64,000 nucleotides of DNA. It comes from Patellaria atrata CBS 101060. Lineage: Eukaryota. The notes under the pieces were generated by a model, which saw nothing but the letters and a program-made list of their open reading frames with translations, was not told the DNA's origin and did no database searches. The translations under genes and the position numbers were made by a program. The stretch covers positions 1,261,301 through 1,325,300 of the forward strand of contig MU006093.1 of NCBI GenBank assembly GCA_010093705.1, read 5' to 3'. This document shows positions 37,398-44,648 of the stretch, piece by piece (position 1 is the stretch's first letter; the number at the start of each line of letters is the position of its first letter).

Positions 37398-39497
37398 TCA
37401 AATCACGATACTGCCCAGAGTATCAACTACGACCCGGAGGAATGCTTGCTGAAGAAGAGCACCGATAGTAGGATCCGTTTGATCAACGGTATCAGGAAGT
37501 CCAAAGGCGGACATTCCTTCAACACAGGCTTTTGTAGCAGAGTAATACTTGCTCCCCATATTCATACGGACTCTCTGAAGAAGCCCATCATTCTCGGAAA
37601 AGATGATCTCGTGAATTTGTTTAGATGATACGGTATTACCGTCACTTCCGGCTGTTTCATGAACAAGTGAGCTTGGCTGATAGGCAGTAAACAGTTTTTC
37701 GGCGGGTTCCCAAAGCGCAATCTCCATAAGAACGATACCTAGGCCATAGATATCATAACTTTTACGAAAGCGATTGCCATCGACATACTCAGGATGGCTA
37801 TAAACAGCCCAATCTTGGGATAATGGGGGCCCCGTAGTGGGACAACCACTCTCATCGAGCCTTGCATATTCGAGACCACTCAAGTACATATTTCCTAGAC
37901 TGTCGTCGTTCGCAGTCAGCTTAAGGAAGAGTACACTGGCACTTCGAAGTCCTTTGTGAAGCCAATTCACCGCATGCAATGAAGATATGCAAGCTGCCAG
38001 ATCTTGAGCCAGCTGGAAGCGGATCGCAATAGGTGGCTTCCGTCCTTTTTCAAGTACCCAAAGTAGGGACTGTAACTCATGGGTCTCAGGCCATGGATCG
38101 CCAGATGTATGAATGAGTCCGAATGCAGGATTCTTCCCTTTTCTAATTAAGTATCCGAGACAATAAGGCAGACGGAACTCTTTAGGCTTGAATTTGGTTT
38201 GCAGTAGAGCTACCAACCTTTCGACAGCTCTTACCAATCTGGGATCCGGTCCAGCACGGAGAATTCCATTACCCTCATCGTTAAACATAATTTTGAAGCT
38301 CTTCCATTCTACCCAGAGTTTTTTTCCTCGGAGTGCTCCGATTGTTCGGGTTCCACGATCTTCATCGTCCCCCAGTTCTAAAGCCTGGATATCCTCAAGA
38401 GCTAAATGTTTACTTTCGAATTTGGTAGAGCTTTGGTCTTTCTGGCTCTTAGCTACGATGATGCTGAACCGTGTCAATCGCTGGAGTAATGATTCTGGTC
38501 CAGTATGCAATGCTTCCGTACCTCCACTTGATTCACGAGCCACAAGGGTTGTACCTTGCGAATCAAAACTTGTCCTGGAATCAGTGGATTGAGCTCTAGG
38601 CTTCTGCATAGCTTCCAAAAGATTTTCCATGCCCTGTACAGTGGTAGTCAGTTGCAACATCGCGAGCCATGTCTCCCGTGTTGTTTCTAGGAGGATTTCC
38701 ATCTGTGTATCACCAAGGGTTGTATGGAGGAAGTCCGTAAGTTCAGTAAGACGCTCAACATGCCTCATTGCTCCATCTCTATCTATCAGAGCCCATCTTA
38801 ATCGTTTTGGTTGCTTCGAAATATCTTGTATCCCCTGAGCTACTTTGACGAGGGTATTAAAGCCACGCGGGTAGCTCCGCCTCTCGGGAGGGATATCTTG
38901 AGATCGAAGGACGTGGGCAAATCTCTCTAGGTCGATGTCCTCGATTACACTTTTAGTCCGGAATTTGTTCAAGATATTCTTGGATTTCTCGCTATGAGGC
39001 TGACGATGATCATGTGAAGTGATTGGCGGAGATGCCGTAATGTCTGGTAACCTTACAGTAGGCTCCTCTCCGCTCTCGACGGGTATTCTCTGTGCTGGGT
39101 CCTTGGGCCCTTCTGCGCCTATACTGTCGTACCTTAAACTCACTTCTTTAAGAGCTTTAAGAATGCTTTGTATCTCACTTAGTACACCAAATATCAGGGC
39201 TTTGTTGTACTTCAACTTCCGGTCGTATTCATTGTGTTTTTCCGGATCGGTGAGGCCAGCTGCATCTCCCCAGTCGAGTATCTTGCTAAATTGTATAGCT
39301 AGATTGATTCTGAGCACGCCGCACTCCTCGTCCATCTGAATAGCTGATAGGAACCGTGCATAACCTAATCAAATATTAGTAGTCACACGGATCTATATAT
39401 CTTCACGGGGCAGACCTTTCTTGATTCCACTAAATACCTGGATAGCCAGTGACGCTGCCCCAATCGTCAAAGCGGGTAGAGCGAATGGATCCCCCAT
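37398..39497 (-). CDS. HeLo (prion-inhibition/HET-S-like) domain plus C-terminal pseudokinase, about 682 aa
   Basis: Exon 1 39497-39416 (MGDPFALPALTIGAASLAIQVFSGIKKG), 51-nt intron, exon 2 39364-37398. HeLo-type L.W...GL and RLRWAL.D...L...L. Kinase-like LWVEWK, WLHKGLRSASVLF, LSGLEYAR, YSHPEY, DIYGLGIVLMEIALW. Confidence 0.88.
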
Positions 39498-40755
39498 GGT
39501 CGCTTTTGAAGGAAGTGTTCTTGTGAATGCTATGGGGAGTATCTCGAGGTGTGGAGGGATAGCGTACGATACATCTCATGAGCGGGGCGAAGCCTATATG
39601 TTCTTCTCTTCAGCCTTATCATATAAGAACCTCCTTGACAGCGCCCAAATATCGCCTCAGTCTCCGATGACACTACCCATTGGTAACTATCTACATCCAC
39701 TACCAAATTTCTATACTCAATCTCAAAGTGTCACCAATTTAACCCTACAATCGATGAATCTCTAGCGTCTCTCTATTCATGGTTCGCAACAGCTAATTTC
39801 AAAACGATCGACCCGCAGATCTCACAACTACTACAGGCGTAATATTTCGGTTTTGAAACGTAAAATACCGCCGTGTTTTTCTCACTCGCCTACGGGCATG
39901 CAAATGTCTTCAGCTTGCTTCAAGCCACAAAAGCTGCAATCAAACTATTGCATATATTCGTTCAGGCCTTACTGTGCCTACTTATTCGACATCAGTTGAC
40001 GAATCAAATACACATCAATTATGGTTCGGTGCTGCCGGTGAAGAATTCTTTGCTTCTTTCTAGCTCCCTCCGGCGCTAAAACCTACGGCGGATTCGATAT
40101 TCGCCAACCAAGATCAATATTCGTAGGTTTGCTATCTGATCTCATTTGAAAGAGGCTCTTCTACATATGCGGCTGCTTGAGTCTCCTGTTAAGATTGTGT
40201 ACACTTTCTAATCCGTGCCACGCATATCTCTGCTGGGAGCCCCTCGCGTCGGTTTCTTTCAGTATCACTTGAAATTTCCGACTGGAAGAACTTTGTCTTG
40301 AAATTCTTTTAATAATTATGCAATATTAAATCAGATTTTCATGTACCCTCTCTGGCCTCAATATTATTAGCTGAATCTTGCGCTTTTCGTCTGGTAAGGA
40401 CGCGGAAGGATTGGCATAATTTTTTGCCCAGAATCTCTGACTGACATACTTTTAACTACAGTGACTCAGATGGTCATTTCATCGAAACTGAGTATCTCAT
40501 CTCTCTATCACCGCATCGGCATTCCCTAGTTCCTACGCATCTTGTACGAAAAATTGTATGCTGGCAAATGCTACTTCGCATGAGATCACAATAATCTTTC
40601 TTGTTCAGTCGAAGCTCTTCTCCAATTTAAAACGTAGAAAAGGTTATCGACACCCCTATGGAAGAGGAGAATGCGTGTTTTTTGCGGCCATTGTCCTTTC
40701 TTGTTTGCCAATTTGGATTTCCTTCAAGTACACATTTGTTCATCGATTTAAATAC

Positions 40756-42684: not shown

Positions 42685-42812
42685 TAAAACGAATGTGCTA
42701 TTCACGTGCTATCTGTAAAGAATTGCATAGGAGGTGCTTTCCACACCCCCCTTCGATTGAGTCAAATTTTGGGGATCCGTCATTATAGCTTGGAATGGAA
42801 CAGTTATTGGAG

Positions 42813-44648
42813 CTATCTATTTGGGTATGTGCGAAAGGATGCCAACCCACGCTTTCCTGCAAAAGCGCGAGTGTCGGGATATTCAGCTTTATGTTGTAGG
42901 AGTAGATGATCCGCAAAGTCATCTCGATCTCCAAGGTCTCCGGCATCCCTCCCCACTTCTTGACACAAGGTACAACTATACCGAACGCCTAATGCAAATC
43001 GCTCCCACTGCGGAGTTCTGGCCCTCTGATGTCTATATTGTACGATCAGGGAAGCACACGACTCTATATTGACCCGTACGTCGTCCCTTTTACAATACTC
43101 TGTGGTAGCCTCTCTGATTAGTCTGATGGTTTTCTCAGCATCGATTCCTGGCGCTGTGTCGATACTATTCATCCACGGAGTATCTGGATCCAACCTTATA
43201 TAACGATATCTATCATGGCCAGTGCCTTGTCCGAGGCTCAGTTTCTTGTCAACTAACTTTTGCTCCCAGTCATGACGCGTAGCAGCCTTCGAAGGGATCA
43301 AGCCCGATCGTCTACTTCCGCAACCTATACTGACAATCCCGTACATTGGAGAGACGTTTCTTTTAGGCATCGGATGCATGGCATCAATCTCCCTATACAT
43401 CTCCATAGCGGGATTTGTCATCCAACTCGAGCCGTCGTAGAACTTTCTGTTCCCAATTCGTACTGACCTGAAATATTTCGGAGAAGCTGCGGTCACCTGA
43501 CATAGCGACTTTAAGGGAGTAGGTTCGCATTCCGTGGCTGTATTTCTGTTGAACGAGGTAACATTCACAGGTTTGAACTCGTAGGAACGAAACAGATGTG
43601 GTCGCCAAACACCCTGTTTCCGATCTACCTCCATAGCTAGGACGATCCTATGCAGACCGTGAGCTTTTGTTTATCCCAATAAGTGTCTATACCTTACGTT
43701 TTGCATTTATTTCGATCTGACCCCAGGTTTAAGAGTTCATTAGGTTTGCCGAAGTTTCCCAGATCATCAGAAAATATAGATTTTAACAGTGCATTATCGA
43801 GAGCATTGTTGAACCTTTTGCGCACACTTAACATCCGGCTAGACCGTTTTGCGTTGATCGCCATCTCTCGGCATAATTTCTCGTATCTTTGGATCGCTCC
43901 ACTAACTGGAAGCTGCAGTCTGCCTAACATAACGGCAATGATGCTTTTAAAGTCAGTCAATGCTCACCGACCGACAAAATCACTTACCCGCTCATACTCG
44001 TTCCTCCTATGTAGTCGAAATAATGACACGGTAAGAATCTTTCATGGTTAACCATGTCATCGGAAGTTAGTATTCCATTCCGGGATTCAGAGATGACATC
44101 TGTAGCCTCTACGAACGGTGAAGCGTCGCTTGATCTTACGCTCTCATCGATTTCTAATTCCTTTTTGACTACTTCGATCATCAGTTGTTCGAGGATATAC
44201 AATGAAGCAAGCCCGCGGACCCCTCCCCCATCTATTTGGTAATCAGTCACAATCTTTTCTGGGAGTAGTGTGGAGAGCTACCTAAACTCAGAACCATCTG
44301 CCTCAGCCAGCAGTTCGGTACGAATTTCTTCCTCTCCTGGACATTGAAGACAGTTCGATGGATTGTCTCCGTCGGTAACTTGACACTGGGGAATTGCGAG
44401 ACTCCGGGATCGCTCCCATCGCTAGAGGAGAATGTAGATGATTTTGAGCTGAGTCCGGTTTGTGAGAGAACAGCATCTTGGGATGTCGACGTTGCTGATG
44501 CTGACCTTAAGGAAAACCGTGACCTGGGAGAAAAGTGTGGTATTAGAGATATTGACGGACTCTCGTGGCGCAATGGATCAGATATAGGCCGGACAGAAGA
44601 ATCCAGACTTTCCATTGTTAAAAGTAATGAACTTTGCTTGTCAAACAT
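42813..44648 (-). CDS. Patatin-like phospholipase (iPLA2-gamma-like) with a C-terminal C2H2-like motif, about 563 aa
   Basis: Exons 44648-44282, 44231-43988, 43943-43698, 43647-42813. VLSLDGGGVRG, PCHYFDYIGGTSMSG, TAASPKYF, FYDGS..NP, VSIGCG, CTLC..HLLLQH. Confidence 0.88.

Follow-up and report, generated by a model that had tools for sequence, protein, structure and literature searches.

The HeLo domain of fungi is a relative of MLKL's four-helix bundle, as described in PMC12881547 and PMC10197012, and one sentence of the former, a 2025 review, mentions kinase or pseudokinase domains joined to some fungal HeLo and HELL domains in a manner "reminiscent of MLKL". The same review regards the degree to which necroptosis is conserved as still to be worked out, and describes fungal clusters of gasdermin and protease genes in which the executioner lies beside its activating enzyme, the latter often fused to WD40, tetratricopeptide (TPR) or ankyrin (ANK) repeats. 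In plants, MLKL proteins have an immune role, according to the abstracts of 10.1101/681015 and PMC10951266. In the literature covered by our search, which reached few subscription journals, we found no partner kinase, upstream activator or patatin partner for HeLo-pseudokinases; neither was the term DUF7580 found, nor were "fungal MLKL", "HeLo-kinase", "HELL-kinase" or "HeLo-pseudokinase" found in use, and the accessible part of PMC9815663 does not treat partners of such proteins. Here we analyze a 64,000-nucleotide stretch of Patellaria atrata CBS 101060 (contig MU006093.1; hereafter the window), in which a cluster at positions 37398..44648 encodes a HeLo domain fused to a pseudokinase (gene 1), a Ser/Thr protein kinase (gene 2) and a patatin-like phospholipase (gene 3). 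Relatives of these genes are neighbors in many other loci, and the three very probably form one functional unit.

We scanned a metagenome collection with an alignment of the HeLo-pseudokinase family, which matched 551 stretches, 309 of them encoding a relative, and we examined the best 80 of these 309 with up to 10 kb of flank kept on each side. Clustering of the HeLo genes at 90% DNA identity yielded 50 non-redundant groups, of which the 33 with at least 2.3 kb of upstream sequence were considered assessable. The Pfam HeLo model scored above its cutoff in 31 of the 33 locus proteins scanned, the remaining two being truncated open reading frames (ORFs). Counts of linked kinases were based on tblastn and a family hidden Markov model (HMM), and kinases of the gene 2 family were told from stray ones by comparing the score of the HMM of alignment A3 with that of Pfam Pkinase. 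A single-linkage clustering of ORFs ("28 groups") was not used, because it merged ANK-only ORFs with kinases.

By the family HMM, a kinase of the gene 2 family lies within 3.7 kb of the HeLo gene in 19 of the 33 assessable groups, and a diverged copy recognized by its C-terminal domain (locus L013) brings the number to 20. The initial annotation had named adjacency of homologues elsewhere as its own refutation test, and its prediction is borne out by these groups. In 16 of the 20 linked groups, the kinase and HeLo genes are arranged head-to-head as they are in the window, with the kinase upstream on the other strand, and 18 of the 20 neighbor kinase ORFs show the catalytic loop HxD[LIVM]KxxN. 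All linked kinases compared score higher on the family HMM than on Pkinase, while for three stray flank kinases (L027, L037 and the SNF1-like L073) the Pfam Pkinase score is by far the higher of the two. With one best kinase match counted per locus, the flanks up to 4 kb away (278 kb in all) yielded 20 matches and the more distant ones (244 kb) yielded 2 (Poisson P 7e-13), a density about nine times higher near the HeLo gene than further out.

The patatin gene joins the pair in 7 non-redundant groups, which together with the window give eight trios in four layouts: the window order, the patatin gene inverted, the patatin gene placed beyond the HeLo gene, and the kinase-patatin pair inverted. 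When the whole window was compared with the 80 loci using tblastx, the HeLo gene was recovered in 80, the kinase gene in 26 and the patatin gene in 8-11, while the other 57 kb were common to at most 3 loci anywhere and nothing adjacent to the cluster was common. Since the same members recur in shuffled order with no common flanks, the arrangement is not inherited synteny, and looks like the result of selection for clustering.

In the window, the cluster is organized as follows.
37398..39497, minus strand: gene 1, HeLo-pseudokinase, 682 residues (ORF and splice sites)
39497-39416 and 39364-37398, minus strand: exons of gene 1, with the ATG at 39497, the stop codon included and a GT..AG intron of 51 nt
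38634..39497, minus strand: HeLo domain with a hydrophobic N-terminal helix, the helix being coded by exon 1 (Pfam HeLo)
37401..38420, minus strand: pseudokinase domain with a kinase fold, DUF7580-like (IRAK4 alignment, HKG for HRD and SGL for DFG)
39498..40755, no strand: divergent intergenic region of 1258 bp between the ATGs of genes 1 and 2 (coordinates)
40756..42684, plus strand: gene 2, Ser/Thr protein kinase, 609 residues (Pfam Pkinase, splice sites)
40756-42018, 42068-42428 and 42479-42684, plus strand: exons of gene 2, with the ATG at 40756 (splice signals, relatives)
42479..42681, plus strand: conserved C-terminal domain of the gene 2 kinase (common to relatives, no Pfam match)
42813..44648, minus strand: gene 3, patatin-like phospholipase bearing a C2H2-like motif at its C-terminus (Pfam Patatin, four exons)
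42891..43034, minus strand: C2H2-like motif in the product of gene 3 (C500, C503, H522 and H527, with R480, R483, W489 and E490)

The splice sites of the three genes are based on consensus signals and homology. Two sequencing runs contain the stretch, both as contigs that span all 8.2 kb without joints and are probably DNA, possibly the source assembly, and no RNA run with it is listed. ORFs, splice sites and Pfam domains agree on three intact genes at the positions given by the initial annotation, and its two spacings are exact: genes 1 and 2 are head-to-head with 1258 bp between their ATGs (40756-39497-1), a region that may hold a promoter shared by both, and genes 2 and 3 are tail-to-tail with 128 bp between their stop codons (42813-42684-1). 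The product of gene 1 is that of the NCBI protein P0001, except for one additional predicted intron of 78 nt (around 38900-39000) in P0001, which removes 26 linker residues; because relatives align coding sequence there, we read it as coding. Gene 2 has introns at 42019-42067 (49 nt, GTATGG..TAG) and 42429-42478 (50 nt, GTGAGT..TAG), and its product is 100% identical to P0121 over the shared part. Within 41950-42684, however, the P0121 model splices out the conserved last kinase subdomain together with a CxxC motif and stops before the conserved C-terminal residues, whereas the kinase domain, judged by relatives, extends to this CxxC motif. The first ATG of gene 3 is at 44648 and its stop codon at 42813-42815, while the NCBI model P0241 (552 residues), to which its product is 100% identical, starts at 44615; the coding pieces mapped by peptide, with junction codons and stop uncounted, are 44615-44283, 44232-43987, 43942-43697 and 43646-42816. 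No second copies of the three genes were found elsewhere in the window.

Gene 1 encodes a complete HeLo domain: the Pfam model (PF14479) matches P0001 with 80.7 bits (cutoff 23.2) over positions 2-200 of the 205 in the profile, and the family profile matches the HET-s/HET-S HeLo structures 2wvq, 2wvo and 2wvn with E-values of 1.6e-9 to 1.1e-8. In an AlphaFold2 model (mean predicted local distance difference test score, pLDDT, 74.5), the HeLo helices span residues 7-33, 40-63, 68-77 and 82-110, and the C-terminal 340 residues adopt a protein-kinase fold, superposing on BRAF and MerTK with Z about 21 and a root-mean-square deviation of 3.0-3.5 Å over about 250-267 residues. In an alignment with IRAK4, the catalytic loop corresponds to LHKGLRS and the DFG motif to LSGLEY. 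HKG thus stands where HRD is expected, and SGL in the window protein, or SGF in most relatives, where DFG is expected, in agreement with the pseudokinase call of the initial annotation. Both catalytic Asp residues are absent in 36 of the 36 members of alignment A1, with H, K and S of the loop invariant and no Asp at the DFG position. Given this kinase fold and the substitutions found throughout the 36 members, gene 1 encodes a pseudokinase of the Pfam DUF7580 kind. In the activation segment, from SGL to a conserved HP motif, Thr occupies three adjacent columns in 21, 23 and 16 of the 36 sequences, and the third column holds Glu or Asp in 13 of the 36. Such alternation of Thr with Glu or Asp is common at phosphosites.

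The specific kinship with MLKL that the initial annotation had suggested finds no support in the profile search, where IRAK4 (E 2e-10) scores above MK2 (2.6e-7) and MLKL (4btf and 4m68, 3.4e-7). Pfam scans of the gene 1 product returned HeLo and no MLKL_N, and a Foldseek/VIA search with the full-length model matched the kinase domain alone, MLKL being absent among the matches listed. An Atlas feature search put a chordate MLKL cluster at rank 29 with a score of 0.83, which is a lead only.

Gene 2 is predicted to encode an active Ser/Thr kinase. It matches Pfam Pkinase with 124.3 bits, and K132 of beta3, E147 of alphaC, D237 of HRD, N242 and D255 of DFG are invariant in all 32 sequences of alignment A3; the window kinase has DFD where DFG is usual. 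The nearest solved sequences are NEK7 (5.7e-20), followed by CDK2 and RSK, and no RHIM-like core ([IV]Q[IVLC]G) is present in the 609-residue product, so by sequence the kinase is not RIPK-like, and its homology to RIPK3, as suggested earlier, is unsupported. Its conserved C-terminal domain also occurs in P0123, P0142 and the linked kinases of L001/L002, L017, L004/L005 and L013/L014, and every cluster in which it was detected, namely the window and 4 of the 7 groups, includes a patatin gene; it gave no Pfam match and no usable match in the protein atlas. N-terminal to the kinase domain (40930-41000, residues about 58-80) we also observed a conserved motif, in which at least 90% of 32 members keep Ser61 and Trp77, and which may be a docking element.

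The product of gene 3 is predicted to be an active patatin lipase. Pfam Patatin (PF01734) matches P0241 with 43.2 bits against a cutoff of 27.7 (profile positions 1-189 of 191), and the protein has the Gly-rich oxyanion motif DGGGVRG (DGGGxRG), a Ser190 that is invariant in alignment A4 and Asp346 in a YDGS motif that is at least 90% conserved. In its tail, the Cys and His residues of the C2H2-like motif and the Arg, Trp and Glu residues listed with them are invariant in 21 of the 21 sequences of A4. A Foldseek search with the fold model (mean pLDDT 68.9) ranked the CapV/CapE lipases best (E 1e-10 to 2e-9, template-modeling score by target 0.59-0.67) and then the plant patatin Pat17, a ranking among patatin folds that is close and should not be over-read. 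An exhaustive protein search returned 71 cluster representatives at E at most 1e-30 with matches over nearly the full length, and a narrower search with exon 4 matched the Patellaria model alone.

A maximum-likelihood tree of 48 HeLo-pseudokinases places the window protein in a clade of 14 rows (support 100 in the Shimodaira-Hasegawa-like approximate likelihood ratio test), in which the kinase is linked in 9 of the 9 assessable loci and the patatin in 6 of the 9. In other loci the partner kinase is accompanied by repeats: ANK repeats are fused to it or follow it in L077, L032, L057 and L041 and precede it in L039, and TPR_10/TPR_12 repeats are carried by it in L028 and L038, while no NTPase domain was detected in these ANK- or TPR-bearing partner kinases of related loci. 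In L057, the ANK ORF after the partner kinase (4719-7832, minus strand) also matches GGACT, a gamma-glutamyl cyclotransferase-like family, with 27.4 bits against a cutoff of 22.8. Two further ANK ORFs (L076:3888-5321 and L078:13548-15942) lie beside HeLo-pseudokinase genes that have no clear partner; their kinase-family signal is about 16 bits, and they may be degraded or very divergent partners.

With regard to NOD-like receptors (NLRs), no NACHT or NB-ARC NTPase of the kind found in fungal NLR (STAND) proteins was detected among the window ORFs scanned. The earlier statement that no NLR lies nearby therefore stands for the window, but not in full for its relatives, whose kinases carry ANK or TPR repeats and one of which, L041, has an NB-ARC/TPR ORF. 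This ORF (L041:8814-11366, minus strand) shows strong TPR_10/TPR_12 matches, DUF7779 and a weak NB-ARC match (21.7 bits, below the cutoff of 23.5); it is located 249 bp downstream of the HeLo-pseudokinase gene, which has a kinase-ANK gene upstream, and it could represent an NLR added to the module.

On its left, the cluster is bordered by a gene with WDR55/WD40 matches, consistent with its designation as JIP5 in the initial annotation. To the right, five ORFs of 83-155 residues scanned between 44.7 and 49.5 kb gave no Pfam match. The gene-poor stretch here has the lowest G+C content of the region (0.387-0.407 at 45500-47500) and is common to no related locus. The right-hand neighbor past it is a 640-residue ORF at 49530-51452, rich in Ser, Thr, Pro, Ala and Lys, which lies in a block of high G+C content (0.54-0.56) and has no Pfam match.

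From the anatomy of the genes and the established behavior of HET-S and MLKL, we infer which protein phosphorylates which, the way in which control runs, and that the module leads to death. Gene 1 would be the executioner, the N-terminal helix of its HET-S-type HeLo domain attacking membranes, and its C-terminal pseudokinase domain would keep the HeLo domain in check. The gene 2 kinase would switch the HeLo domain on through the pseudokinase, whose Thr-rich activation segment it would most likely phosphorylate. In the simplest view, the gene 3 patatin would answer to the same kinase as a further effector directed at membranes, though it might instead be a co-factor or sensor, and it appears to belong only to the sub-clade holding the window; the ANK and TPR repeats on partner kinases of other sub-clades would serve as the sensor. 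For the gating step itself, that is, the kinase-dependent release of HeLo, we consider the chances to be even. A complex prediction for the pseudokinase and kinase domains scored 0.08 against a mark of 0.34, which tells neither way. The full reading, a conserved cell-death or immune module in which the kinase switches the HeLo-pseudokinase and the patatin is a second effector or co-factor, is the one that we favor, by a slight degree. A broader proposal is more tentative and falls somewhat short of an even chance: the Pezizomycotina might hold an old and widespread phosphorylation-gated, necroptosis-like pathway in the form of gene pairs, in which a sensor kinase, alone or extended by ANK repeats, TPR repeats or a small C-terminal domain, would act on a HeLo-pseudokinase, with the patatin as co-executioner in one clade.

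Several points weigh against the favored reading. Thirteen of the 33 assessable groups have no linked kinase, and hence the pseudokinase can exist without a neighboring kinase; in one clade of 10 rows, 0 of the 5 assessable members have one. Co-divergence of the kinase and the HeLo-pseudokinase is weak (Spearman 0.20 over 171 pairs, a value reached by 84 of 2000 permutations). The excess of kinases near the HeLo gene is a count of one best match per locus, and the independence of the loci is judged by clustering at 90% nucleotide identity. By sequence comparison, the pseudokinase is no nearer to MLKL than to IRAK4, and gene 2 is likewise, on its sequence, a generic divergent eukaryotic protein kinase with no special likeness to RIPK. 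Furthermore, the elbow of the window patatin reads GTSMS, while its fifth place is Gly in at least 90% of relatives.

Among the alternatives, the one that survives best is a real module under the opposite control, a guard or decoy arrangement, which we regard as unlikely. The pseudokinase would then mimic or bind the kinase, and the kinase would either restrain the executioner or be a guarded target, as in the pseudokinase/NLR guard systems of plants or in a toxin-antitoxin pair; death would follow upon inhibition, modification or loss of the kinase, for instance through an effector of a competitor. This explanation fits the linkage evidence as well as kinase-gated release does, and the initial annotation had itself allowed that the kinase might restrain HeLo. 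It is also consistent with the variation that we observed among loci 91-98% identical in DNA: a full kinase-TPR gene lies head-to-head with the HeLo gene in L028, L038 and L040, whereas in L034, L035 and L036 the first 330 bases or so of this gene are kept, followed by unrelated sequence, a pattern that would fit a polymorphic guard locus. However, an executioner is evidently tolerated without a linked kinase in the latter three loci, since their HeLo genes, nearly identical to those of the former three, occur without most of the kinase gene, and this speaks against strict dependence on an antidote. The 13 groups without a linked kinase are similarly awkward for obligatory restraint, and the sensor-type ANK and TPR repeats on the kinase suit an upstream activator better than a guarded target.

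The presence or absence of the kinase-TPR gene among such close relatives hints at a role in allorecognition, that is, heterokaryon incompatibility, where polymorphic partners would meet, mismatched alleles would kill fused cells and the contact between kinase and pseudokinase would provide allele-specific recognition. Proteins with HeLo domains and others with patatin domains do act in known fungal incompatibility systems, such as HET-S and PLP-1, as stated in PMC12881547. Nevertheless, the module is kept across deep clades of the family with intact catalytic residues, as would suit a general pathway of immunity or death that could in turn have given rise to incompatibility, and we consider allorecognition as the primary function to be quite improbable. 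Least credible of all, and disfavored by the loci themselves, is the explanation that the genes are neighbors by descent or chance, each acting alone, which the weak co-divergence and the many HeLo-pseudokinase genes without a linked kinase would suit, but which is at odds with the roughly ninefold higher density of kinase matches within 4 kb than beyond, the lack of a flanking gene common to any of the 80 loci, the retention of the same three members in four gene orders and the membership of the linked kinases in one family distinct from the three stray kinases.

The HeLo-pseudokinase architecture and the Pfam DUF model were already known, whereas the linkage result appears to be new, though it may have been mentioned earlier. 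A conserved, linked candidate kinase turns the open question on fungal necroptosis into a direct experiment with defined genes and residues, and the sensor-type repeats on some partner kinases offer an entry to what such pathways sense. If the broader proposal on the Pezizomycotina is true, the pathway would be the equivalent of RIPK3-MLKL in fungi, with an unrelated kinase in use, and a kinase-switched, pseudokinase-caged pore former would have arisen, or persisted, outside animals and plants.

In kind, the module would be one of the pseudokinase-caged helical executioners switched by a kinase, here fungal and HeLo-type, paired with an unrelated kinase family and with a lipase as the third member. 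Like vertebrate RIPK3-MLKL, it combines an N-terminal helical membrane-attacking domain and a C-terminal pseudokinase lacking catalytic residues with an active Ser/Thr kinase as the candidate upstream switch and a Thr/Ser-rich activation segment. Unlike in that system, the N-domain is Pfam HeLo of the HET-S type, the kinase shows neither likeness to RIPK nor a RHIM-like core, the genes of the two partners adjoin, the cluster includes a patatin, and ANK or TPR repeats occur on the kinase in other clades. The fusion of a HeLo-type N-domain to a pseudokinase is shared with the plant MLKLs (Arabidopsis MLKL1-3 and wheat Pm13), but the fungal pseudokinase part has its own Pfam model, DUF7580, and no dedicated neighboring kinase is reported for the plant proteins in the abstracts of 10.1101/681015 and PMC10951266. 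With HET-S/NWD2 and HELLP-type effectors, it has in common a homologous HeLo domain and an effector that adjoins its regulator; however, the C-terminus of gene 1 is a kinase fold rather than an amyloid prion-forming region of the HET-S or HELLP type, and the neighbor is a kinase rather than an NLR with a matching amyloid motif. The two-gene logic is that of the gasdermin-protease pairs, and the repeat-bearing partner kinases parallel the activators in which a protease is joined to repeats, although activation would be by phosphorylation instead of proteolysis and the executioner is HeLo instead of gasdermin. Finally, gene 3 resembles the patatin death effectors of the fungal NLR PLP-1 and of bacterial CBASS (CapV/CapE) in having a patatin fold with a Ser-Asp dyad, and differs from them in being a stand-alone protein with a C2H2-like tail and with neither NB-ARC/TPR nor a cyclic-nucleotide sensor.

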